The notes under the pieces are model-generated. The model was given only the letters and a program-made list of their open reading frames with translations. It did not search any database and was not told where the DNA came from. The position numbers were made by a program, and so were the translations under genes. Of a stretch of 40,940 nt of DNA, positions 5,761 to 38,080 are shown piece after piece (the stretch's first letter is position 1; each line of letters starts with the position of its first letter). Source of the stretch: Methanobacteriota archaeon (lineage in GTDB: Archaea; Halobacteriota; Methanosarcinia; Methanosarcinales; Methanogasteraceae); contig JAYEGI010000114.1 of assembly GCA_034659035.1 (NCBI GenBank), positions 1 through 40,940 on the forward strand, given 5' to 3'.

Positions 5761-8700
5761 ATGAACGCCAGGGGTACGATGAACGCCCGCAGAAGCATCC
5801 AGGGGAAATGGTGCAGCATGGCGGTCTTGACCATATTTGCTGCTGTGATGCTTGCCGCATCCATAGCGCCTGCGCTGGCATCGCCATTGGTCGGTTTCAC
5901 ACCCCCAACACCAGCAAATGGATCAATTCAATCAGCAACAAACGTAGAAATGAATGTTTCGATTACAGAAAGCAACCTCGATAAAGTCAAATTCAATTGG
6001 AATGGAACTAATTTTACTTTGTATGACCATTCTTCTTTGATGTTGATGTATAATTTTGACAATGTTAGTGCTTTGGGTGAATACACTAGCGATACAGATG
6101 GATGCGTCAAAGATTTGAGCGGATATGGCAATAATGGAACCCTTGGAAATGATACTGCAGGAACACCTCCTCCTACTTGGAATTCATCTGGGAAATATGG
6201 TGGTACGTTTGTATTTAATGGAGTAAATACTTCAATGACCACTAATAAGAGTCTGCTGAATAATCTATCGCAGTTTACCCTATCAGGATGGGTAAAGCCA
6301 AGCGAGGAACGCAGAATGAGCTTCTTTGGACAGAATAATGTTATTGAGTTTGGCTTCGTGAATGGTAGCAGCATCTCGGCATGGGCTGAGCATAGTAATA
6401 ATAATAAAGGTGGTTCTATACAGTGGATCTTTGAACAAGGCACTTTCAAAGGTACATGGCATTTTGTGTGTTTTGTCGGGAATGCTACAAACATAAGCCT
6501 GTATGTTGATGGCGCGCTTAAATCTTCGGATGAAGTAGACATAGACCCAACAATTGAGTATGGAACATCAAATGATAGTTTTAATATAGGGTATGGCGTT
6601 TGGGATTCTGACGGAGACCATTTCAATGGTTCTATTGATGAGGTTCGGGTATGGGATAGAAGTTTATCTGATGATGAAGTTTATCAACAATATATCTCAA
6701 ACTTGAATAAATACAATTCATCCCAGTGGTATCTTTATGTAAACCAGAGCAAGAATGCAAATGCTGGCTTAGATAATGGGACATATACTTACCAGGCATT
6801 TGCTTCTAATACTACAGGGAATGAAGATGCAACAGAAGAGCGGACTGTTACGATTGGTTCAGATACAAAATCGCCCGTAATCACAATAGACGCGCCAACC
6901 CAGTCCTCTCCGGCTAATAGAACCGGAGGTGAGCAGATATGGGTCAACTTCACCTACGCCGAACCCTGTTCTGAAAACAACTATACAGTCACGATAGGGA
7001 ACGCAACCGCGGTCATCAACTCGACCAAACATACAGGTGTGGCTGGCGGAACAAACAGGACTGCAAACGAGAGCTTCAATCTGAACACAAGCGCAGCAGA
7101 CGGATTGTATAACGTGACGGTCGAGATGTATAACTGCTCATCGAACTATAGTATCTCGCACCAGAACAACTCGGTCAGAAAAGGATCTTATAATGCCTCA
7201 ATAATCTCACAGCCGGAAAACCGGACAACGGAACCGAGCGTCAATGCAACCTACGAGCTAAAGATCACGAACACCGGAAGTTTCACAGGCACATTCGTGC
7301 TTGCGGTGACCAACCTCGATACTGCAGATGTTGCAGCGCTGAACAAGACACAGATAAAGGATCTTGCCAGCGGTGCTTCACAAAGCGTCACACTGAACGT
7401 CAAAGATTCGACTCCAGGAACGTACAACGTCACTGTGAATGTCACATCTACCCACTCAGGAAGTAAGGTTGCAGAGACTAACATCACGACCACGGTCGTC
7501 AGTCCAGGTCAAACACTTACTCTCGGAAACGTCACCGACATAACAAGCGACTGGGGCAGAAGCTTCAACCTGAACCACTCAGTCGCAGTAACCAATGCAA
7601 CCGCAAGCAACGTGAACGTTACCTACAACGTCCCATGGATCACGGACAACATCACCATGGGAACGATAGCGAAAGACGGAGTGAAATGGCACAACCAGTC
7701 AATCGAGAACTCAATAGTACAGAAGATCACGGTCACGGTGGATGCGACCACGACAACCACATCCACAACAAACGACAGCGAGACGTTTAGCATCAACATC
7801 ACCAAAAGAGCGATCAATATCACTGCTGATCCGGTCACCTCCCAATCCGTTAATTCCAACACCACATTCTGGATAAATGGAAGTGCAGATGGTGAATATG
7901 CTGAGACGTTCATCGGTAAAGCCGATCTGATAAGAGCTGGAAGCGTCATCAGGAATCAGACCATATCAGACGGAAACGCGAACTTCAGCAGAACAGAATC
8001 CACAGAAGGGACGTTTAACTTCTCAATCCGGTTCTACAACACGACGCATTACAACAACAACACAACGAATAACGCAACCATGCATATCGTCGGTGATACA
8101 CCGCCTGCAAGCATTACGGGTCTTAACAGTCTGACTGAGCAGAGCCGCATCCGCTGGACATGGACAGATCCGGCGGACGCTGACTTCGCAGAGGTGATGA
8201 TCTACCTCGATGGAATATTAGAGACGAACGTTTCAAGGGGCGTCCAGAACTACACCGCAACCGGACTTACACCTAACACCGAATACACGATCGGCACGCA
8301 CACGGTCGATGACAAAGGAAACATCAACCGGACATGGGTGAACGACACTGTAAGGACGCTGCCATTACCAGGGCTTCAGCGCATCAATGTGACGCCGACC
8401 GCATGGACGCTGAACATCAGCGAGTCTGTGAATTTCAATGCCACCGGATATGATCATAACAATGACTCGATAGATCCGGCAAACCTAACATTCGGATGGG
8501 GCACTGCCCCGGCAGGCGTTGGGACGCTCAACGCGACGACCGGCTCTGTTGTGAACTTCAAAGCACTACATACAGGGCGCACCGAGATATGCACTGTCAA
8601 CGGCAATGTATCGAGTAACGAGACCTACGAGGTATGGATCACAGTAAACACGCCTCCTGAAACAGAAGACGTCACCAACGGAACCGGTAATGCCACATCA

Positions 8701-9444
8701 GGCAGTTCAACAGCGATCGTCATGCTCAACAACGGATCAGTCAACGGCACGATCACCATCGAGGAGATCGGCGACCCGATCAACGGAACAGAAGACAGCG
8801 GGAACCGGACAGGCCTTGGCACAGACTCCATACCTGTCAAGGGCGCCAACGTAACAGTAAACGGAAGTATCAAGGCAGCACTCAATGACACGGGCGGCTA
8901 CGTGCATATCAGGATCGGGTACAACGAGTCGCAACTCGGGAACATCGATGAGAATGCGCTCTACATCTACAAGTTCGTAAACGGCACTGGCTGGGTGAAA
9001 CTGGTTAAAGGCAAGCCATCCTACTGCATCGCAAACGGCAGGAACACAACTGCAAACTATGTCTGGGTCAATGTGACCGAATGCAGCAGATTACTGCTTG
9101 CCGGCAGTCCGAAAGCGACGCCAACTCCACCCCGCGACGGTGGCAGCGGTGGCGGAAGCGGCGGAAGCGGCACATATCCGCCAGGATGGTTCACAACCCC
9201 GACGCCGACTGTGACCGCGACGAAAGCACCGACAGCATCGACTACCGCGACAGCTGCGACTCCAGGCAAGCAGGTGACGCCAGTACCGACGAAGGCGAAA
9301 CCCACGGCGATAAAGGCGACCACACCGGTGGCGGAAGGGGCGACAGCAGGGACGGCAAAGAAGAGTGCGCCCGGGTTCACTGCGGTATTTGTGATCGCGG
9401 GGATGCTTGCAGTTGCTTACGCGATGATGCGACGCAGGGAGTAA
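5761..9444 (+). CDS. Large cell-surface glycoprotein with LamG-type domain, FN3-like region, Thr/Pro linker and PGF-CTERM anchor signal
   Basis: 1227-aa ORF with signal peptide (MAVLTIFAAVMLAASIAPALA) and the LamG_3-type motif FNGSIDEVRVWDRSLSDDEV. By manual count it has roughly 80 N-x-S/T sequons. The C-terminus is GSGGGSGGSGTYPPGW..TPTPTVTATK..KKSAPGFTAVFVIAGMLAVAYAMMRRRE, a PGF-CTERM archaeosortase sorting signal. Confidence 0.85.
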   Translation: MNARGTMNARRSIQGKWCSMAVLTIFAAVMLAASIAPALASPLVGFTPPTPANGSIQSATNVEMNVSITESNLDKVKFNWNGTNFTLYDHSSLMLMYNFDNVSALGEYTSDTDGCVKDLSGYGNNGTLGNDTAGTPPPTWNSSGKYGGTFVFNGVNTSMTTNKSLLNNLSQFTLSGWVKPSEERRMSFFGQNNVIEFGFVNGSSISAWAEHSNNNKGGSIQWIFEQGTFKGTWHFVCFVGNATNISLYVDGALKSSDEVDIDPTIEYGTSNDSFNIGYGVWDSDGDHFNGSIDEVRVWDRSLSDDEVYQQYISNLNKYNSSQWYLYVNQSKNANAGLDNGTYTYQAFASNTTGNEDATEERTVTIGSDTKSPVITIDAPTQSSPANRTGGEQIWVNFTYAEPCSENNYTVTIGNATAVINSTKHTGVAGGTNRTANESFNLNTSAADGLYNVTVEMYNCSSNYSISHQNNSVRKGSYNASIISQPENRTTEPSVNATYELKITNTGSFTGTFVLAVTNLDTADVAALNKTQIKDLASGASQSVTLNVKDSTPGTYNVTVNVTSTHSGSKVAETNITTTVVSPGQTLTLGNVTDITSDWGRSFNLNHSVAVTNATASNVNVTYNVPWITDNITMGTIAKDGVKWHNQSIENSIVQKITVTVDATTTTTSTTNDSETFSINITKRAINITADPVTSQSVNSNTTFWINGSADGEYAETFIGKADLIRAGSVIRNQTISDGNANFSRTESTEGTFNFSIRFYNTTHYNNNTTNNATMHIVGDTPPASITGLNSLTEQSRIRWTWTDPADADFAEVMIYLDGILETNVSRGVQNYTATGLTPNTEYTIGTHTVDDKGNINRTWVNDTVRTLPLPGLQRINVTPTAWTLNISESVNFNATGYDHNNDSIDPANLTFGWGTAPAGVGTLNATTGSVVNFKALHTGRTEICTVNGNVSSNETYEVWITVNTPPETEDVTNGTGNATSGSSTAIVMLNNGSVNGTITIEEIGDPINGTEDSGNRTGLGTDSIPVKGANVTVNGSIKAALNDTGGYVHIRIGYNESQLGNIDENALYIYKFVNGTGWVKLVKGKPSYCIANGRNTTANYVWVNVTECSRLLLAGSPKATPTPPRDGGSGGGSGGSGTYPPGWFTTPTPTVTATKAPTASTTATAATPGKQVTPVPTKAKPTAIKATTPVAEGATAGTAKKSAPGFTAVFVIAGMLAVAYAMMRRRE

Positions 9445-9494
9445 GCAGCAGTACAGACGATGACGGATGAAGGGCGCATTTCCCCTTCACCATC

Positions 9495-9504
9495 TTTCTT
9501 TTTT
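9495..9504 (+). terminator. Oligo-T tract downstream of the surface-protein gene (possible archaeal terminator)
   Basis: tttctttttt lies about 50 nt after the stop codon. Archaeal termination commonly occurs at T-runs. Confidence 0.3.
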
Positions 9505-9863
9505 CGACGGCAACGTGGCATATCCCCTCAACGTGAGCATGTATGGCGTGTGGTACGACGATCACACCGAACTGGAGGTGTTAGCGAACGATGCGCCTCA
9601 GCACATCCATGCTCCTGACAACCTCACACCATCTCAAAAAGGGGCTCTCCGCTGTTTTGTATGGGTACTACAATGTCCCCGACATTAACTGGAGCAGATC
9701 ACAGGAAAGGTGTATCGACTACAAAGCTCCCGCTGTTATCGAAATGTCCAAGATTTCATCATTAAGGCATATCGTTGACATGATATCTTAACCCCATTTC
9801 ACCCACATGACCTATCGAAGAGCCCAAAAAAGTCTTTGGATAATCATTAGCCTCTTTGTATAA

Positions 9864-9970
9864 TGCCCGGGACGGGTTTCGATCCCGTGATTTCCAGATG
9901 TCTCAGGATTTTGGCGCACTGGGATAATTTCCCTATGAGTCTGGCGCCCTCCCGACTAGGCCACCCGGGC
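9864..9970 (-). tRNA. tRNA with CAU anticodon (elongator Met or Ile2) containing a 34-nt intron at the canonical 37/38 position
   Basis: Minus strand: acceptor GCCCGGG/CCCGGGC, D arm GCCT..GGGC, anticodon stem CCAGA/TCTGG, loop CTCATA|intron|A, T arm ACGGG-ATCGAAA-CCCGT. 107 nt = 73 + 34. G1-C72 argues against an initiator. Confidence 0.8.
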
Positions 9971-10075
9971 AGTGCATGACAGATTCGGTGGTGGTGGTAT
10001 TAAAGAGTATCGGCAGGAATTTCCAAATGTTTGCATAGCGACATTCATCATGGATTGGGGGGAAGATAACGCCAG

Positions 10076-10684
10076 ATGAAAACCAGAAGCGATCTCCAGA
10101 TTACAACCGCCTGCCCGACCTGCTCGCCAGATGAGCCGCGGTTGCACCACATAATAAAGCAGCGCGGAGCCGAGGTGCTTGTGCGATGCGATGACTGCGG
10201 AAGCGTGCACACAGTCATATCAAAGCCAGTGCGAACCGCAAGCGTCAGGGTCATCGTGAGCAGGGGGGAAGATTCGGAACGTTACACAATCGAACTGCCG
10301 GTCGACCACGAGGTCTATGTGGGCGATGAACTGCTCGTGGACGATCCAACAGCAGACGAGGTGCATCTGGTAGAGGTCGCCTCGGTCGAGTCTGACGGCA
10401 GGCGGACGGTAGTAGCGACTGCTGCCGAGATCGATACGATCTGGGCGCGGGCGATCGATGAGGTGACTGTGAAGATCGCAATCCACGACGGCACCAAGAC
10501 TGAGTCGGTTCGTATGCAGGTGTTTGGGGATCAGGAGTACACGGTTGGTGCTATCGAGAAAGTTGGCTGGAAAAACGCAAGGATAATACGAATTAAGACA
10601 TATAAAAGAGGATTTAAGAAAAATAAAGGCGATGTTGTACTTGCAAAGGATATCAAGCGAATCTTTGCAGAGCGAATGCGATAA
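10076..10684 (+). CDS. Conserved archaeal zinc-finger protein (CPxC...CDDC)
   Basis: 202-aa ORF. N-terminal CPTC-x(22)-CDDC zinc-ribbon-like motif followed by acidic beta-rich repeats and a basic tail. Resembles the uncharacterised archaeal Zn-finger protein family. Confidence 0.55.
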   Translation: MKTRSDLQITTACPTCSPDEPRLHHIIKQRGAEVLVRCDDCGSVHTVISKPVRTASVRVIVSRGEDSERYTIELPVDHEVYVGDELLVDDPTADEVHLVEVASVESDGRRTVVATAAEIDTIWARAIDEVTVKIAIHDGTKTESVRMQVFGDQEYTVGAIEKVGWKNARIIRIKTYKRGFKKNKGDVVLAKDIKRIFAERMR

Positions 10685-10818
10685 TCGCCTCAGGTCTTGT
10701 ACGATTTGTCACCGAGAGTTGGAGAAGCTCACTGTCGTGTCTGGATGGTCACCGGATGTGGTTTAAGGTGGCTGTTTCCATAACGCCTTCCGGGTTGTCC
10801 CGCCTCCATTCGGCGCAA

Positions 10819-10827
10819 GTTTATAGG
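10819..10827 (+). promoter_or_regulatory. TATA-box-like element upstream of glnA
   Basis: gtttatagg lies about 25 nt upstream of ATG 10852. This would give a leaderless or near-leaderless transcript. Confidence 0.3.
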
Positions 10828-10851
10828 TGCCGCGGTTCATAATATGATGTG

Positions 10852-12177
10852 ATGACCGCCAATGAAGATGTGCTGGGAATGATTGCCGACAATAATATAA
10901 AATTCATCAGGCTCCAGTTTGTCGATGTCCTTGGAATTGTAAAGAATGTCGCGATACCGGCTGCACAGATGAAGAAAGCACTCGACGTCGGGATATCCTT
11001 CGACGGATCATCCATCGAGGGGTTTGCAAGGATACAGGAATCTGACATGGTGTTAAGGCCGGATCCTGAGACGTTCCGGATTCTTCCATGGAAGGCAGAT
11101 AAAAATGAGATTGCCGGAATCGTGTGCAATGTCTGTCTGCCCGATGGTGCACCGTTTAAGGGTTGCCCGCGATACGCGCTCACAAAGGCGATTGCGGAAG
11201 CAGAGAAGATGGGATATGTTATGAATACGGGTCCCGAACTGGAGTTCTTCCTCTTCGAAAAAGAAGATGGCATACCAACAACCACACCTCATGATTCGGG
11301 CGGATATTTCGACTTTCCACCAGTTGATCTTGCAGAGGATATTCGAAGGGATATCGTGATCGCGCTTGAAGAGATGGATTTTGAGATAGAAGCGTCGCAT
11401 CACGAGGTTGCCTGTGGGCAGCACGAGATCGATTTCAAGTACAGCGATGCACTGACAACTGCTGACAGGGTGGTCACCTTCAAGTACGTAACCAAAACGA
11501 TCGCAACGAACAAGAATCTCCATGCCACGTTCATGCCAAAGCCGGTCTTCGGAACCAGTGGGACTGGTATGCATATAAATACATCCTTATTCAATAAAAA
11601 TGGTGAAAATATCTTCTTCGATCCTGATGACGACCACGGGATCAGTGATACTGCAAGATATTTCATCGGCGGATTACTCACCCACATCAAGGCAATAACC
11701 GCGATCACAAATCCACTTGTCAATTCATACAAACGGCTCGTATCCGGATACGAGGCACCGGTCTATATCACATGGTCATGGGCGAACAGGAGTTCGCTGA
11801 TCCGGGTACCGGCAGCGCGCGGAAGCGGAACAAGAATCGAACTCAGATCCCCGGACCCCTCGTGCAACCCGTACCTTGCGTTTGCAGCCATACTGGCATC
11901 CGGGCTTGATGGGGTACGGAATAGGATCGATCCTGGTGAACCGATCGAAGATAACATCTACGAGATGGATTTCAATGATATGACTGACGCTGGCATCGAC
12001 ACGCTTCCGACAAGCCTCAGTCTCGCACTCGATTACCTGGAATCGGATGAGGTGGTGCGGGCCGCCCTTGGCGAGCATGTATACACCGCGTTCATGCGAG
12101 TTGCTGCTGCAGAATGGGAGGAGTACCGGGTTCAGGTGCACCAGTGGGAACTGGATCGATATCTGCAACTGTTTTGA
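10852..12177 (+). CDS. glnA: Glutamine synthetase type I
   Basis: The track ORF starts at GTG 10849, with ATG immediately after at 10852. Characteristic blocks: IKFIRLQFVDVLG, FDGSSIEGF, GPELEFFLF, HHEVA.GQHEIDF, MPKP.....GSGMH and NSYKRLV.GYEAP. Confidence 0.95.
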   Translation: MTANEDVLGMIADNNIKFIRLQFVDVLGIVKNVAIPAAQMKKALDVGISFDGSSIEGFARIQESDMVLRPDPETFRILPWKADKNEIAGIVCNVCLPDGAPFKGCPRYALTKAIAEAEKMGYVMNTGPELEFFLFEKEDGIPTTTPHDSGGYFDFPPVDLAEDIRRDIVIALEEMDFEIEASHHEVACGQHEIDFKYSDALTTADRVVTFKYVTKTIATNKNLHATFMPKPVFGTSGTGMHINTSLFNKNGENIFFDPDDDHGISDTARYFIGGLLTHIKAITAITNPLVNSYKRLVSGYEAPVYITWSWANRSSLIRVPAARGSGTRIELRSPDPSCNPYLAFAAILASGLDGVRNRIDPGEPIEDNIYEMDFNDMTDAGIDTLPTSLSLALDYLESDEVVRAALGEHVYTAFMRVAAAEWEEYRVQVHQWELDRYLQLF

Positions 12178-23973: not shown

Positions 23974-24813
23974 ATGATCCCGATAACTGACAATCATATT
24001 CATCTCGATCGCCGGGGAAAGGGACTCATGGCGGTCAAGGAATTTGCCCGCGCGGGTGGCACACACATCATCCTTGTATCAAAGCCATCGTGGACACTTG
24101 GCATGGATATAATAAAGCCAGAGGATTACGAACAGGTCTTTGATGAGACGATCAGTATCGCGCGTGAGGTAAACCGGTCTGATATTGGAGTCACTGCGTT
24201 TACTGTGCTCGGGGTCCATCCTGCCGAGATCACGGTGCTATCCGACCGTGTGGGGCAGACGCGGGCAGAGGAGTTGATGGTTTCCGGGCTTGAGATCGCA
24301 CAGCGTTTTGTTTGTGAGAATAAGGCGATAGCCCTCAAGACCGGAAGACCACATTATGAGGTCTCTGGAAGCGCGTGGGATGCGTCCAACCGCATCATGG
24401 CTTACGGCATGACTCTCGCGCGTGATGCCGGATGCGCTGTGCAACTTCATACTGAGACTGCTGACGCGGCAGTTATCGCGGATCTTACAGCGATCGCTGC
24501 GAGATCTGGGATTTCTCCAGAAAAGGTGGTCAAGCATTATGCCCCTCCGCTGATACGCGTTTTTGAACGCGAAGGGATCTTTCCGGGAGTGCTTGCAGGC
24601 AAGGGCGCAATCGAGAGCGCACTTACAGAGGGGAGCAGGTTCATGATGGAGACTGATTACATCGACGATCCCGAGAGACCGGGCGCAGTGCTCGGGCCAA
24701 AGACTGTACCCCGGAGAACATTGCAGTTGGTCGATAAGTTCGGCGAGGAGGTTTTCTGGAAGGTGCACAAGGAGAACCCTGAGCAGGTGTATGGCATCGA
24801 GATCGTTGTATGA
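23974..24813 (+). CDS. TatD-related metal-dependent hydrolase (TIM barrel)
   Basis: 279-aa ORF. N-terminal ITDNHIHLD metal-binding motif and the internal LHTE and METDY pattern of the archaeal TatD-related family. Confidence 0.75.
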   Translation: MIPITDNHIHLDRRGKGLMAVKEFARAGGTHIILVSKPSWTLGMDIIKPEDYEQVFDETISIAREVNRSDIGVTAFTVLGVHPAEITVLSDRVGQTRAEELMVSGLEIAQRFVCENKAIALKTGRPHYEVSGSAWDASNRIMAYGMTLARDAGCAVQLHTETADAAVIADLTAIAARSGISPEKVVKHYAPPLIRVFEREGIFPGVLAGKGAIESALTEGSRFMMETDYIDDPERPGAVLGPKTVPRRTLQLVDKFGEEVFWKVHKENPEQVYGIEIVV

Positions 24814-24928
24814 GCAACTGCCCACACCGCACATCGGCCTATTTACTCACAGTTTCACAATCGCGTTTCTTAAGCACACATCGATGCATACGCCGCACGC
24901 TGTGCCTTGCTCATGATCGATCATGGCA
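24633..24928. repeat. Junction copy A: intact tatD-like 3' end + 33-nt spacer + about 80-nt rnfB 3' fragment
   Basis: 24633-24846 aligns with 30066-30265. 24847-24928 (tcacagtttcacaatcgcgtttct...) aligns with the true rnfB 3' end at 37277 onward and with 30266 and 35142. Confidence 0.8.
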
Positions 24929-25098
24929 GGTATCCAAGCCACTTATCTGTTTTGATGTAACGGAATTCTAGCTCATCCGGAATCCACGAGATTTGACGAG
25001 ATTTGGTAAGTATTATGATCGATGCCCCGCGTCTAAAAAGAAAGGACAAAAAGCGTCGACACAGGGACTTAAGGTATACCCAAAAAGAGGCTATTCCA

Positions 25099-26529
25099 AT
25101 GGATACGCAAAGTATGCTGAAACAGATGTGCAAAAGCGATATTACTGACTCCGATATAAAGGCGATCTGCAAAAGTCGTGGTTTTTCTGCCAAAGAGGCG
25201 ACTTCTCGCGACGTCTTTGAGAACTTCTTTATCTCCACGATTGGCATAAAGGAAGTACTGGACTCATTAACTTACAAGGAAGTTGTATTTCTCCACTTGC
25301 TAAGTAAGATGAAGGAGGAAGTTGGTATCACGTATTTCAAGAGACTATATGGTTGCGCAGAACTCTCAAAAGGGTATTATAATACAACTTTTACCAAGCG
25401 GTATAACGAAACAGTCAAAAAAGTGAAGAGTAATCTGGTGCGAAAGGGTGTGCTCATCGCCATAGAGCAAGAAACATATAGAAAGTCTACTAAGATGGAA
25501 CGCTTACGATTCTCTTTTCCTCCGGAATTTGGAGAATTTCTTCCACCACTCGTCAAGGCTTCCGAATTCAAAAAAGCCGGGAAGTTCAAGAGAGAAGTTC
25601 TGCGTGATAAACTGCTTGAGCTTGCGGGAAGAGAAGGAAAAAGACCATCCCCCTTATCGAACTCAGACAGAAAATCGTTCAAAATCACAATCAACGAAGG
25701 TAATCTGTCTATTGGTGGTAAACAGTTCAGATCAAAATACCTGTTGGATTGGCAGAAAGCTTGCATGCGTGTGTCTATTAAAACCGATATCGAGGAGCGC
25801 GGTTATCCCGGTTATTCAGGTTATCCGAGCGATGATATGGATCCTGTTGATGTTGTACTCTATGCAATCGCACAACTTGGAGAGCATGAATGGCTACCCG
25901 CAGACAGTCTCGAAGTGATACTCAAGATATTTACAGGAGATGATATAAATCACCCCTGCGAACAGATCTGCGAGGCGGGATGGGAGTGGGGCTGCCTTGT
26001 AAAAGTCGTGGTGGATAAAACGGCATACTACCGGTTACCTGATGATTCATTAGACGATGCAGCCGCACCAACGCCTGAACAGTACCTACAGATTGTGCCT
26101 GACGGTACGGTAGTGTTGAATCTGGTAAAAATTCCTTATGCTGCACTGGAAGTGATAGCTTCGGTTGCACTCCTGGATATTCATAACGCCAATCTGCGAG
26201 CGACCGCAAATATCATTAAGATTGGGAATACGCTCACGACGGTTCGGAAAGAAGGTGTTTTTGAGTGGCTAAGGGGGAATTCATCTGGTTTTCGAAGTGC
26301 AATTGAGATTGCTGAAAAGAGATGGGGTAAACAGATCATTCATGAAGACCTGATGGTTGCACAGGTAAAAGATCTGAGCCTCAAGGTGCAGATCGAAAAG
26401 TCATGCACCGGTTCGCAACTTGTATCGCTTCCGGATGATTATATCGCCTTTCCCTGTGGCGTTCTTCCCGCGATACAGAAAGTAGTGAGCGCGTCGGGGC
26501 ACGTGGTCAAGAAGGCGAGGAATGAATGA
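25099..26529 (+). CDS. Uncharacterised protein A of the XPB operon (wHTH-like N-terminal half, XPB-N-terminal-like module at the C-terminus)
   Basis: The track ORF begins at TTG 25003. The first ATGs are 25015 and 25099, and the latter has aagagg 8 nt upstream. The C-terminal LQIVPDGTVVLNLV...VFEWLRGNSSGFRSAIEIAEKRWGKQIIHE parallels the XPB N-terminus. The stop overlaps the next start (ATGA at 26526-26529). Confidence 0.7.
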   Translation: MDTQSMLKQMCKSDITDSDIKAICKSRGFSAKEATSRDVFENFFISTIGIKEVLDSLTYKEVVFLHLLSKMKEEVGITYFKRLYGCAELSKGYYNTTFTKRYNETVKKVKSNLVRKGVLIAIEQETYRKSTKMERLRFSFPPEFGEFLPPLVKASEFKKAGKFKREVLRDKLLELAGREGKRPSPLSNSDRKSFKITINEGNLSIGGKQFRSKYLLDWQKACMRVSIKTDIEERGYPGYSGYPSDDMDPVDVVLYAIAQLGEHEWLPADSLEVILKIFTGDDINHPCEQICEAGWEWGCLVKVVVDKTAYYRLPDDSLDDAAAPTPEQYLQIVPDGTVVLNLVKIPYAALEVIASVALLDIHNANLRATANIIKIGNTLTTVRKEGVFEWLRGNSSGFRSAIEIAEKRWGKQIIHEDLMVAQVKDLSLKVQIEKSCTGSQLVSLPDDYIAFPCGVLPAIQKVVSASGHVVKKARNE

Positions 26530-28241
26530 TGCAACCAAAACCAGACTTAACCCTGGCAGACATCGACGAGCTGAGAATTGTTTCCAACCCGTACGATCTG
26601 CGCCATGATCTACATGCTTTTGTTGAGTATGTGAAAGAGCGCGATGTAAAACGGTTGCACCGGAGTAATGAGTTGAACAAGTCCGATCAAAAACGATTGG
26701 CAAAACTCATGAGCGATTCTTGTCTGGTAGAAGAAGTAGAGGCGTACGGACGTTCTGACTGGATGAATTATGTCGATTGCCTGGCGCTTACATTCAAGTT
26801 CGTAAACTATGACACCGAGGGGCGGTATATGGGGTATTACAGCAATGAACCGTCATTTCCTGACAATTACATCGACGTTGATACCAAAAAATACGAAGAG
26901 TTCATTAATTTACCGTTAATAGAGCAGGAGAAGAAGCTTCAGGATGAAGTAGTAAAAAATTATCCCGATGGTGAAAATGAGTTTTACGAGACAAGTATAC
27001 TTGGCAGGCTATCCGGGTTCTCGACCTGGGGATCAGGGACTGGCATTATGCCCGGATTAGACTTTGGCAAAGCAAGGCGGTTTATTATCGAGGTTTTGCA
27101 ATCCTGCACACCTGGTGTTTGGTATACTACATCTTCATTGATCCGATATCTGAAAGAACATCATCCATTCTTCCTCATTCCGGAGAATCCCAAATATTCA
27201 CATAAAGAGTATGCAAAGGAGGGTCGGTATGGCAACTTTCAGGAGAAAAAGGAGAGGTGGGGCGAGAGGATGCAGATTTCAGAGGGTGATGCGGATGCGT
27301 TTGAGCGAGTAGAAGGTCGCTTTGTGGAACGGTTCCTTGAAGGATTGCCCCTCATTTTAGGATATATCGAGGTTGCCTACTCCGAAACAGAGTATAAAGG
27401 ACTTCTGCCCGAGATGAATCGGATTCTGGCGTTTCGGATCAATGATCTGTTCCTGCACGTGATGAGCCAGGAGATCATAGAACCAAAAGTCACAGTGCAG
27501 CCGAATTTTGAGATACATGTGGAATCGGAATTGTATCCGGTTCTGATTCTTACGCAACTGACAAAACTTGCGGATGTCGTAACAAAGGACAGAGCAAACA
27601 TATTAAAACTTCGAAAAAAGAAGGTTCTGACCCAATTAAGCGAGAGAGTTGATTTTGATGTGATCAAGCTCCTGGAGAAGATGAGCGGTCAGAAACTGCC
27701 ACAGAATGTTCGAATCGAACTCGAAGAGTGGGCTGGGGCTTCAGAAGCATTCACACTCTATGAGAATGTTGCGCTTCTCGAGGGAGATCGCAATTTGCCA
27801 GAACTCGACGAATTCACGATTGAATCCATATCACCTGCGATTAAGATCGTGCGTTCGCCCGACCAGTTGTTTACGTATCTTCTGCAGAAGGAGTTAATCC
27901 CTCTTCGCATAAAACATCGCTCTTCGGATTTTATGCTGCTCCCGGACGGTGCAGACACGGCGTTTCCCAGACGCGATATGGGAGTTTCAAAAGCAAAAAC
28001 AAAGACAAAAACAAAAACAAAGAAACGTATGACGATCAAACGGGAAGTCCGGATCACATTTCACTTTCCGGCAAAAGAATTGATGGAAGAATTCCGAAAC
28101 GGACTTATAACTTCCGGATGCCCGGTTGCTGCTGATTGGAGCGAATTGACACTCTCCTTTGACAAGCGTTACGAATCAGAGGTAAAGAAAGTCAGCAAGA
28201 AGCTGTTAGATTATACGATCAAAACCGAGGATATTCTATGA
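26526..28241 (+). CDS. Uncharacterised protein B of the XPB operon (contains an XPB-N-terminal-like module, a KT-repeat linker and a small C-terminal domain)
   Basis: 571-aa ORF. KVTVQPNFEIHVES...DVIKLLEKMSGQKLPQNVRIELEEWAGASEAFTLYE parallels XPB LIIQSDRTLMLEV...EITCGLEEFSRYSVPSNVIVDMREWYETYGKLVLQ. The stop overlaps the XPB start (ATGA at 28238-28241). Confidence 0.7.
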   Translation: MMQPKPDLTLADIDELRIVSNPYDLRHDLHAFVEYVKERDVKRLHRSNELNKSDQKRLAKLMSDSCLVEEVEAYGRSDWMNYVDCLALTFKFVNYDTEGRYMGYYSNEPSFPDNYIDVDTKKYEEFINLPLIEQEKKLQDEVVKNYPDGENEFYETSILGRLSGFSTWGSGTGIMPGLDFGKARRFIIEVLQSCTPGVWYTTSSLIRYLKEHHPFFLIPENPKYSHKEYAKEGRYGNFQEKKERWGERMQISEGDADAFERVEGRFVERFLEGLPLILGYIEVAYSETEYKGLLPEMNRILAFRINDLFLHVMSQEIIEPKVTVQPNFEIHVESELYPVLILTQLTKLADVVTKDRANILKLRKKKVLTQLSERVDFDVIKLLEKMSGQKLPQNVRIELEEWAGASEAFTLYENVALLEGDRNLPELDEFTIESISPAIKIVRSPDQLFTYLLQKELIPLRIKHRSSDFMLLPDGADTAFPRRDMGVSKAKTKTKTKTKKRMTIKREVRITFHFPAKELMEEFRNGLITSGCPVAADWSELTLSFDKRYESEVKKVSKKLLDYTIKTEDIL

Positions 28242-36691: not shown

Positions 36692-37216
36692 ATGGATGGC
36701 AATGGAGATATTGTTAGGCAGAGATACAAAGAATTTAAAGAGATGATAGATTATCTCGAGACCAACAAAGAGATCTCCTTGAAAATCGTTGCGGATGACA
36801 ATCTTAAAAAGGTTCTTCTGCTTTCGGCTGCAAGTTATTTTGAAGATGAGATCAAAGATATAATATTAAGTTTTGTGGAGAAAAATTCCGATAATAATCC
36901 AATGATTACATCTTTTGTGAAAAATAAAGCAGTGGAGCGGAAATATCATACTTATTTTGATTGGAGCGCCAGGAACGCTAATAGATTTTTTTCGTTATTC
37001 GGTGACGGATTTAAGGACCAAGCCAGTGAGGATGTTAAAGACAATTCAGAATTGGAAATATCTATCCGGGCTTTTTTAGAGATAGGAAACTTGCGCAATG
37101 AACTGGTACACGGCAATTTTGCTGTGTTCCCAATCGAAAAGACTGTCGAAGAGATTTATGATCTTTATCGTTTGGCTCATCAATTTATCAATTACCTGTC
37201 TTCAAAATTAACATAA
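36692..37216 (+). CDS. Small HEPN-like protein (Rx4H motif)
   Basis: The track ORF starts at TTG 36683, with ATG at 36692. All-helical sequence carrying EIGNLRNELVHGNF (R-x4-H HEPN RNase signature) near the C-terminus. Starts 10 nt after the DUF262 stop. Confidence 0.65.
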   Translation: MDGNGDIVRQRYKEFKEMIDYLETNKEISLKIVADDNLKKVLLLSAASYFEDEIKDIILSFVEKNSDNNPMITSFVKNKAVERKYHTYFDWSARNANRFFSLFGDGFKDQASEDVKDNSELEISIRAFLEIGNLRNELVHGNFAVFPIEKTVEEIYDLYRLAHQFINYLSSKLT

Positions 37217-37230
37217 CTAAAAAATTATAG

Positions 37231-37262
37231 AACCACGAGATTTATATAGAAATCCCGTGGTT
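37231..37262. terminator. 13-bp-stem hairpin between the convergent HEPN gene and rnfB
   Basis: The arms are aaccacgagattt and aaatcccgtggtt, separated by the loop atatag (12 of 13 complementary). It lies 15 nt after the HEPN stop and 15 nt before the rnfB stop. Confidence 0.45.
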
Positions 37263-37276
37263 GTACTGATAAAAGA

Positions 37277-38080
37277 TCACAGCTTCACAATCGCGTTTCT
37301 CGGGCACACATCGACACACGTCCCACACTGGGTGCACTTCTCCTGATCGATCACGGCAACAGCCTTCACCAGTTTGATTGCGCCCTCGGGGCAGTTCTTC
37401 TTGCATATCCCGCATCCGATGCATCCGAACTCGCATATCTCTTTGACATACTTGCCCTTGTCATGCGATGCGCAGACCACATACACTGGTCCATGCTCCT
37501 TTGCAATCGTTAGTACCTGTTGTGGGCAGGATTGCACGCAGCATCCGCAGCCCTTGCAATTATACTTCTTGATCTTTGGAAGCCCGTTATCTGCGATCTC
37601 GATTGCATCAAACATGCATGCACGCACGCAGTCACCAAGACCGATGCATCCATACGAGCAGGCTTTCTTCGTTCCCGAAAGAAGGATTGCGGCTCTGCAG
37701 GTGTCCGCGCCGATGTAATCGTATCTGTCCTTGCAGTTTGTGCCGCCCTGACAGAGGATAACCGGATACATGGGCTCTGCTGCGCTGATATCCATTCCGA
37801 GCAGTTCTCCGATGAGTTCGAACGTCTCTGTGTCGCACGAAGTACACACCTCAGGTGAGACATCCCCTGCCACGATATGTTCTGCACAATCAGCGCATCC
37901 CGGGTATCCGCACGCTCCGCAGTTTGCTCCGGGCATCAGTTCGATCAGTGCATCGACAAGTGGATCAGTCGGGACATAAAACGCCTTTGACGCCCAGACG
38001 AGCATTCCTGCCATCGCAAGTCCGAGTGCACCAAGCACAGCGATTGCAGGCGGCATCAAACTCATAAGATCGACGGTCAT
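37277..38080 (-). CDS. rnfB: Rnf complex subunit B (polyferredoxin)
   Basis: 267-aa ORF. N-terminal TM helix, a CGACGYPGC cluster motif and several CxxCxxCxxxCP ferredoxin motifs. Last gene of the rnfCDGEAB order. Confidence 0.9.
   Translation of the reverse strand: MTVDLMSLMPPAIAVLGALGLAMAGMLVWASKAFYVPTDPLVDALIELMPGANCGACGYPGCADCAEHIVAGDVSPEVCTSCDTETFELIGELLGMDISAAEPMYPVILCQGGTNCKDRYDYIGADTCRAAILLSGTKKACSYGCIGLGDCVRACMFDAIEIADNGLPKIKKYNCKGCGCCVQSCPQQVLTIAKEHGPVYVVCASHDKGKYVKEICEFGCIGCGICKKNCPEGAIKLVKAVAVIDQEKCTQCGTCVDVCPRNAIVKL

Follow-up and report, generated by a model that had tools for sequence, protein, structure and literature searches.

Gene blocks stacked between duplicated gene ends at the 3′ end of rnfB in ANME-2c archaea

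Integrating elements of archaea, casposons among them, insert at tRNA genes or at the 3′ end of the aEF-2 gene, sometimes in tandem arrays, and carry Cas1 or an integrase, with terminal inverted repeats and short target duplications of about 14-15 nt. Circular DNA can also be brought into an archaeal chromosome by homologous recombination, through the Campbell-type single-crossover ‘pop-in’ that is used in archaeal genetics mainly as a laboratory tool; we know of no description of such integration as a recurrent natural route by which islands are built in archaea. In bacteria, integrative and conjugative elements (ICEs), integrative and mobilizable elements (IMEs) and cis-mobilizable elements (CIMEs) accrete in tandem at the 3′ ends of protein and tRNA genes, as seen for ICESt1/ICESt3 and for the CIMEs at fda in Streptococcus thermophilus (PMC5704250). 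The core defence hotspots cDHS1 and cDHS2 of Pseudomonas aeruginosa carry no mobile-element markers, and homologous recombination in their flanks has been proposed as the means of transfer (PMC10250203). Here we describe an island within a 41-kb stretch of metagenome-assembled DNA (contig JAYEGI010000114.1, hereafter the window) from the ANME-2c lineage of anaerobic methanotrophic (ANME) archaea, Candidatus Methanogaster, in which three blocks of cargo lie between a tatD-like hydrolase gene and rnfB, bounded by truncated copies of these genes’ own 3′ ends. What is new is the combination of an accretion footprint that lacks an integrase with a core hotspot whose duplicated arms record its history; a literature search found no paper on such a hotspot in ANME archaea.

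As in ICE, IME and CIME accretion, blocks are stacked at the 3′ end of one gene and bounded by direct repeats of that gene end, with the gene itself left intact; the older blocks, which have no integrase, lie distally, and empty sites exist in relatives. Unlike in those systems, no integrase was found in the array or in the profile-scanned cargo of seven related loci, the repeats (50-260 nt) vary in length and in the positions of their crossovers, one of the blocks is a core operon that has been relocated, one repeat takes in the end of the neighbouring gene, and the host is an uncultured archaeon. With core defence hotspots the locus shares variable defence and toxin-antitoxin cargo between conserved core genes, the lack of obvious mobile-element marker genes, and signs of homologous recombination in the flanks (mosaics of 75-100% identity in which the nearest relative changes by gene). 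It differs from them in that the flank is partly duplicated at every layer, recording the order of addition and giving internal arms, and in being archaeal, with a 32-nt convergent spacer as the hotspot. The topology of the product is identical to that of Campbell-type integration, where duplicated homology flanks the insert, and a homology that covers the gene’s 3′ end leaves the gene intact. The archaeal setting, the insertion at gene 3′ ends and the occasional tandem order recall casposons and other archaeal integrating elements, but neither Cas1 or an integrase, nor terminal inverted repeats, nor duplications of ~14-15 nt were found.

An initial annotation of the window had recognised four segments of shared sequence, here labelled A-D as in that note, and they align far better than expected by chance. 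A (24633-24888) and B (30066-30307) are 89.2% identical (214/240, with 18 gap columns), C (35141-35352) and D (37276-37486) 84.6% (176/208), A and D 87% over 79 nt, and B and C 90% over 50 nt. The last ~50 nt of rnfB are common to all four copies, and a 17-nt motif from the rnfB end has four occurrences in the window, where 0.02 would be expected. Copies of the rnfB 3′ end thus stand at 24847-24928, 30266-30317, 35138-35372 and in the intact gene from 37277, and copies of the tatD 3′ end at 24633-24813 and 30066-30247. Positions within them are given on a reference junction, J, taken from an empty site in a relative (L012), in which tatD occupies 1-837, the spacer 838-869 and rnfB 870-1670.

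Copy A begins within the intact tatD-like gene (23974-24813, + strand; Pfam TatD_DNase, PF01026, E 7.6e-24), of which it takes up the last 181 nt. The native convergent spacer of 33 nt (24814-24846), which matches the 32-nt spacer of J and is nearly identical in L013, leads on to rnfB fragment A (24847-24928, - strand), a stop and 26 codons that align to J867-948 and whose translation ends in CLRNAIVKL; alignment and translation here agree with the structure first described. Copy B consists of a tatD′ pseudogene fragment (30066-30247, + strand) that starts abruptly at J660, and a segment on the - strand (30248-30317) made up of a shortened spacer (30248-30265) and rnfB fragment B (30266-30317, J870-918), ending in CQRNAIVKL. 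Its tatD frame is disrupted by two 1-nt insertions, one 1-nt deletion and a GAG to TAG change, hence three frameshifts and one stop, and its identity to A falls in the range of 85-90% that had been estimated by eye. Fragment C (35138-35372, - strand; J862 to about J1090, with an internal 1-nt insertion) translates as YVKEICEFGCIGCRICKKNCPDGAIKLVQKVAVIDQEKCTQCGTCIDVCPRNAIVKL followed by a stop; it retains the two CxxCxxCxxxCP motifs and lacks a start codon, as had been noted, and is frameshifted further upstream. Copy D is the last ~230 nt (37277-37505) of the intact rnfB (37277-38080, - strand), whose identity is borne out by Pfam FeS and Fer4 domains and by rnfA, E, G and D next to it. The four segments lie where the annotation had put them, with some of the ends revised: B stops at 30317 rather than 30336, C extends to about 35372, and the match in D to about 37505.

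A fifth repeat pair had been overlooked. The 3′ end of the giant peptidase gene in the second block (31239 to ~31426) is duplicated at 30407-30579 (- strand), in a copy that begins at the stop codon and runs ~173 nt inward, its 122-nt core being 85% identical to 31259-31380. The pair brackets a cassette of toxin-antitoxin genes, of which the copy forms the distal repeat, and the same copy is present in L008 and L013. Beyond these pairs, no further long direct repeats were found in the 41-kb window.

The locus was then compared with its relatives. A scan for RnfB in species-representative genomes and metagenome contigs gave ~35 loci from ANME-2c / Candidatus Methanogaster, with RnfB 82-96% identical, and extra loci were reached through homologues of TatD, of c1a (a protein of the first block) and of the DUF262 protein (third block), so that variation was judged over about 40 ANME-2c loci, mapped with the window’s genes and junction J. 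In the window the left flank reads mer, TBP, tatD-like and the right flank rnfBAEGD. The rnf operon, with rnfB, occupies one side in all loci, and tatD-TBP-mer or a DUF4352 gene the other; orthologues of the tatD-like gene are 77-92% identical and adjoin TBP in relatives. The ancestral state proposed from the window, convergent tatD and rnfB, exists today as an empty site with a spacer of 25-33 nt in L009, L012, L017, L020 and L083. The first block, an operon that includes the helicase gene XPB, is the sole cargo in L004 and L014 and is combined with the third block in L155/L156; in L005 the second block, with the giant peptidase gene, directly adjoins intact rnfB; and the full stack of the window recurs in L008 (Ca. 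Methanogaster E20ANME2). The third block is also found beside another left neighbour, a DUF4352 gene with its terminator (L088, L010, L018), of which L016 provides the empty DUF4352/rnfB junction. Elsewhere a small AbrB-like gene lies between rnfB and an rnfB fragment (L023, L081), or the DUF4352 gene itself lies between rnfB and a 110-nt fragment (L015, L090, L096).

Since empty, single and combined occupancy variants are all present in relatives, the hotspot, its ancestral state and the stacking are real, and the three blocks are separable units, as first suggested. The comparison of the tatD-rnfB interval for which the initial annotation had called thus yielded empty sites and alternative cargo rather than one invariant block order. 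We conclude that the rnfB 3′ end at the convergent tatD/rnfB junction is a hotspot of recombination and insertion in ANME-2c (Ca. Methanogaster). Only one ANME-2c subclade has this junction, since relatives of TatD at ~80% identity (L002, L003) have no rnfB downstream. In other ANME-2c lineages (L006, L007/L078, L011) rnfB is followed directly by cupredoxin/S49 peptidase, acylphosphatase and pyrBI genes, with no rnfB fragment; since these are unrelated housekeeping genes, the rnfB 3′ end is a synteny breakpoint as well.

Two loci show further rearrangement. L013 holds the XPB operon and the tatD′/rnfB′ copy together with a different toxin-antitoxin pair: in its rnfB orientation, a DUF4258/zinc-finger pair 36-38% identical to the window’s occupies the same place at 10730-11457, and the peptidase gene is cut to its first 32 codons, which is a cassette swap within the island. 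In two independent assemblies, L155/L156 (2372-3329), rnfB is called as two overlapping open reading frames (ORFs) and is thus probably frameshifted; with the third block it precedes only ~155 nt of rnfA, beyond which lie unrelated genes (GMP synthase, RFC). The locus may represent a hotspot module that has become detached or been translocated.

New layers are added at the rnfB side of the stack, with the most decayed fragment, A, furthest from the gene. Fragment A is 73-80% identical to all intact rnfB ends and is also present in L004 and L013, where it extends to J954; we interpret it as the original rnfB end left next to tatD. In L004 and L014 the XPB operon is flanked only by an 88-nt rnfB repeat (J867-954), with no tatD′ copy, and a decayed remnant of the AbrB-like gene of L023 and L081 separates it from rnfB. 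Copy B (J660-918), which holds 178 nt of tatD, the spacer and the rnfB end, is therefore the product of a separate event, and it can be rejected as the first block’s own att site on the same grounds. Copies of B, known from the window, L008 and L013, cluster together (that of the window is 99% identical to that of L008) and resemble the allele of L004/L083, whereas the window’s functional tatD end resembles that of L001. The presence of tatD sequence and spacer in an L004/L083-like allele identifies copy B as DNA from another ANME-2c chromosome, and the placement of the window’s two tatD copies in different allele lineages supports the earlier proposal, made from their divergence, that the duplicates were imported.

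The repeat copies are themselves mosaic, the nearest relative switching every ~60 nt. In fragment C of L008 the 60 nt nearest the stop match the pre-insertion allele (L005) at 97% identity, and the cargo-linked type is confined to the last ~40 nt, whereas in the window that type reaches almost to the stop, and L155 is a third hybrid. These differing switch points argue that an incoming module crossed over with the resident rnfB at different places, and thus for homologous rather than site-specific recombination. Moreover, one frameshifting 1-nt insertion (an A) is shared by the fragments beside the third block (window, L088, L018) and beside the AbrB-like gene (L081, L023), and its recurrence next to two different cargos indicates that cargo was exchanged between fixed arms. 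Fragment lengths vary (about 36, 49, 82-88, 110, 205 and 230 nt). Inter-lineage recombination is rampant in the region: along 11 kb, the window and L008 are between 75% (inside rnfB) and 100% identical (over 2.4 kb of the peptidase gene), with the best relative changing gene by gene. Within rnfB itself, identity to L008 drops to 75% over a 150-nt stretch (37486-37635) flanked by sequence at 89-94%; the stretch is a hypervariable linker or else a patch of recombination within an essential gene.

The same layout, an intact gene, an insert and a 5′-truncated fragment of the gene’s 3′ end, is found at four genes: rnfB, tatD and the peptidase gene in this island, and the unrelated cdc6/orc1 in another archaeal genome (L151; contig NODE_7168, ERZ2433807). 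There, at 6604-10655, a DUF262/HEPN pair 76% identical to that of the window’s third block lies downstream of cdc6/orc1 and is followed by a 247-nt, 92%-identical copy of the last 76 codons and stop of that gene, the stop-proximal ~130 nt being identical between the two copies. The cassette is in the opposite orientation and shares only its two coding regions, and no non-coding ends, with that of the window. Since the layout recurs at the peptidase gene and at cdc6/orc1, a single recombinase specificity is insufficient to account for it. A further locus with a 71% DUF262 homologue (L158) has no flanking repeat and is uninformative.

The first block (25004-29911, + strand) comprises c1a (25108-26529; 473 aa, no family), c1b (26526-28241; 571 aa) and XPB (28238-29908; NCBIfam equivalog, 814 bits), preceded by a ~100-nt leader and flanked by filler of unassigned origin (24929-25003 and 29912-30065). 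It had been taken for an integrated element, a view that its distribution contradicts. Copies of the same operon in other contexts (L147-L150) share 77-86% identity with the block over 4.9 kb, with DNA homology running from ~100 nt upstream of c1a to exactly the XPB stop, and the operon is found at 57-90% protein identity in ANME-2, ANME-1, Methanoperedens and other Methanosarcinales, where its neighbours are housekeeping genes (cdhD, ATP synthase, homoserine dehydrogenase). It is a conserved chromosomal operon of the Methanosarcinales and not a mobile element; in the tatD/rnfB subclade this operon has been relocated to, or re-acquired at, the hotspot.

The search for mobility machinery took in the window’s cargo proteins (Pfam, NCBIfam and PADLOC profiles) and the unrecognised cargo of seven related loci (Pfam only), the remaining loci being mapped solely by similarity to the window’s genes. 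No integrase, transposase or relaxase was found in this scanned cargo, in agreement with the initial annotation, nor any integrase by Pfam among the main ORFs in the rest of the window, which are ordinary archaeal housekeeping genes and one type I restriction subunit. Block ends carry no terminal inverted repeats, and the island contains no tRNA gene or Rfam family. A transposon or casposon was rejected given this lack of inverted repeats, transposase and Cas1 and the variable length of the duplications (50-260 nt); an integron-like array, given the lack of an integrase or Rfam match and repeats that are coding gene ends and not attC-like palindromes; and tRNA- or ncRNA-targeted integration, given the absence of such genes from the island. 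A viral or plasmid vector with an rnfB-like attP, which the initial annotation had suggested looking for, was likewise rejected: the 17-nt pattern has 13 matches in IMG/VR, which we attribute to chance since they have no other similarity to the island or its proteins, and no IMG/VR contig related to the island was found, the sole relative of the DUF262 gene there being 58% identical and on a 64%-GC contig. Neither c1a nor c1b is credible as a hidden recombinase, as there is no sequence match in the PDB, c1b has a p52-like fold and the operon lies in housekeeping contexts elsewhere (the structure model of c1a, at pLDDT 41.6, was too poor for use). An origin of the 5′-truncated fragments as retro-copies, suggested by their constant 3′ and variable 5′ ends, found no support from a reverse transcriptase or otherwise.

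Everywhere, the topology of the product is the outcome of a single reciprocal crossover between a chromosome and a circle that carries the gene end, whether by an integrase or by homologous recombination. Taking the sequence evidence together, we consider it moderately probable that the island arose by Campbell-type, duplicative insertion and then spread by homologous recombination through the duplicated gene ends. Blocks would have been added one after another beside the rnfB stop codon, each addition pushing the oldest fragment further from the gene. Once formed, a bracket of fragment and intact gene would provide the block with portable homology arms, through which it could be moved, swapped or stacked in any rnfB-bearing relative by ordinary homologous recombination, via the single crossover of a circle or the double crossover of linear DNA, with no need for a dedicated integrase. 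We infer that the host homologous-recombination machinery (RadA) does the joining and that selection keeps rnfB intact and the primary insertions within a few nt of the stop; for the latter we would argue that the convergent spacer, at only ~32 nt, is the sole tolerant stretch. Homologous recombination is favoured by the absence of a recombinase from the profile-scanned cargo, of inverted repeats and of a related viral contig, and by the four target genes, the variable fragment lengths, the mosaic repeats, the shared frameshift and the mosaicism of the region.

Several points weigh against this reading. Its mechanism is deduced from footprints, with no observed excised circle, transfer or recombination enzyme, and it does not account for the origin of the primary insertions. 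The B-C repeats span only ~50 nt, which is little for homologous recombination to work efficiently. Mosaic repeats could also be produced by gene conversion after an integrase-mediated event, and a recombinase acting in trans may be encoded elsewhere in the incomplete metagenome-assembled genomes. Finally, in several cases only 0-17 nt separate the outer boundary of the repeats from the stop codon, and a boundary near the stop is the classical mark of integrative elements that bring a replacement gene end.

This last pattern leads to the strongest competitor, classical tandem accretion, in which elements whose integrase targets the 3′ end of rnfB would each have brought a replacement end, the integrase since having been lost, as in CIMEs, or acting in trans. 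Direct repeats of the target gene’s 3′ end do flank every block, the intact gene is always restored, homology begins at or a few nt from the stop, empty sites exist, and the third block both brings its own rnfB terminator and is foreign in composition (32-36% GC); a three-step scenario of accretion and decay is moreover well documented in bacteria (PMC5704250). We nevertheless regard it as rather unlikely, and depart here from the initial annotation, which had favoured site-specific integration by elements carrying their own replacement ends. One such ‘element’ is the conserved XPB operon; four target genes would demand several specificities; interior breakpoints and switch points vary with no fixed core, although later gene conversion could blur one; an attP has no reason to hold the tatD sequence of copy B; the cassettes at rnfB and at cdc6 have no common non-coding ends; and no integrase came to light in the profile-scanned cargo of the window and the seven loci or in the window’s main ORFs.

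An improbable alternative is that the primary insertion itself made the duplication in situ, by template switching during replication or repair (as in microhomology-mediated break-induced replication or fork stalling and template switching, MMBIR/FoSTeS) or by end-joining at a staggered break near the transcription-termination zone of the convergent genes. After the copying-in of foreign DNA, synthesis would return to the chromosome 50-250 nt upstream and leave that stretch duplicated. Such a process would fit an outer boundary that is constant near the gene end and an inner one that varies, duplications of similar size at unrelated genes for the same cassette family (about 230 nt at rnfB, 247 nt at cdc6), and the identical stop-proximal ~130 nt of the cdc6 copies in L151. 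It sits poorly with the different allele lineages of the window’s two copies, which later allele replacement by recombination could mimic, and with copy B and the shared frameshift, by which many arrangements arose through the transfer of ready-made modules; nor is there direct evidence for break hotspots. That there is no mobility at all, the locus being an artefact of co-assembled strains or an invariant, vertically inherited one, has next to no credibility: the window and most relatives are metagenome-assembled, and the mosaic identity makes strain mixtures likely, but an assembly artefact is excluded by the recurrence of the same junctions in assemblies made independently by different studies from different sources (window, L008, L013, L155/L156, L088), the truncated, frameshifted and 75-90% identical copies are unlike k-mer chaining of strain variants, and the existence of empty-site and alternative-cargo variants already refutes invariance.

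Homology-driven spread from Campbell-type insertions can be extended, tentatively, into a wider proposal. It is possible that duplicated gene ends form a general, integrase-free system for moving cassettes in these archaea, whereby blocks hop, stack and are swapped between species by host recombination; at least two genes (rnfB and cdc6) would be used by the same defence cassette, and insertion itself may create the duplication.

As to what is carried, the second block (30318-35137) consists of a toxin-antitoxin-like pair on the - strand (30609-31202), made up of a YgiT-type zinc-finger gene (30609-30884; NCBIfam TIGR03831) and a DUF4258 gene (30885-31202; Pfam E 3.8e-23), and of a gene for a giant secreted multidomain protein of 1192 aa (31239-34817, - strand) with C39-like peptidase, LamG, M23 peptidase, DUF2341 and dockerin domains (Pfam) and a 320-nt upstream region. 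Over ~2.4 kb (31336-33735) the peptidase gene is 100% identical to that of L008, the neighbouring genes being 75-97% identical, which suggests a very recent inter-lineage transfer. It also contains four to five tandem repeats of ~150 nt (33574-34184; 63-78% identical), which probably encode beta-propeller or VCBS-like modules. The third block (35373-37276, + strand) carries a DUF262/GmrSD_N gene (35503-36681), a RiboL-PSP HEPN gene (36683-37216) and a strong terminator hairpin with a 13-bp stem (37231-37262), which faces rnfB and now serves as the rnfB terminator. In PADLOC the pair matches NsnA (E 1.7e-62) and PD-T4-2_A (E 2.5e-38). The block’s GC content of 32-36%, against about 50% in the flanks, marks it as foreign in composition, and its gene family is widespread in bacteria, with a relative also on the high-GC IMG/VR contig. 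The cargo is enriched in defence and toxin-antitoxin genes and varies between close relatives (DUF262+HEPN, DUF4258+YgiT pairs, the AbrB-like gene), the exceptions to this theme being one repair operon and one secreted peptidase. Outside the island, the window holds a type I restriction R subunit gene at its left edge (384-2957, - strand) and a gene for a second very large LamG-domain protein (1227 aa, 5761-9444, + strand).

The XPB operon yielded one further observation. The structure model of c1b (571 aa; 26526-28241, + strand, between c1a and XPB) is confident (pLDDT 86.7), and in a fold search against the PDB each of its 18 best matches was to the TFIIH subunit p52/Tfb2 (E down to 3.6e-7), with the XPB N-terminal domain next in rank; at the sequence level there is no match. 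In eukaryotes p52/Tfb2 is the partner of XPB. According to a 2026 perspective, Archaea lack all TFIIH subunits except XPB and XPD (PMC13153155). From its modelled fold, c1b would be a conserved, p52-like partner encoded beside XPB in the Methanosarcinales, and it merits follow-up of its own given that stated absence.

To our knowledge, almost nothing is known about how genes flow among uncultured archaea that oxidise methane. For ‘core’ defence hotspots it is an open question by what route defence and accessory genes move without visible mobile-element machinery, and the rnfB locus offers a natural record of such movement, in which the order of addition can be read from the decay of the gene ends and empty, single, double and triple occupancy are available in public data. 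The mosaics in its repeats suggest that species-level lineages recombine homologously with one another. If blocks do move by way of homology arms, new archaeal cargo would be expected behind 5′-truncated copies of gene ends, and the mechanism could be tested directly in the genetically tractable Methanosarcina, which has an rnf operon.

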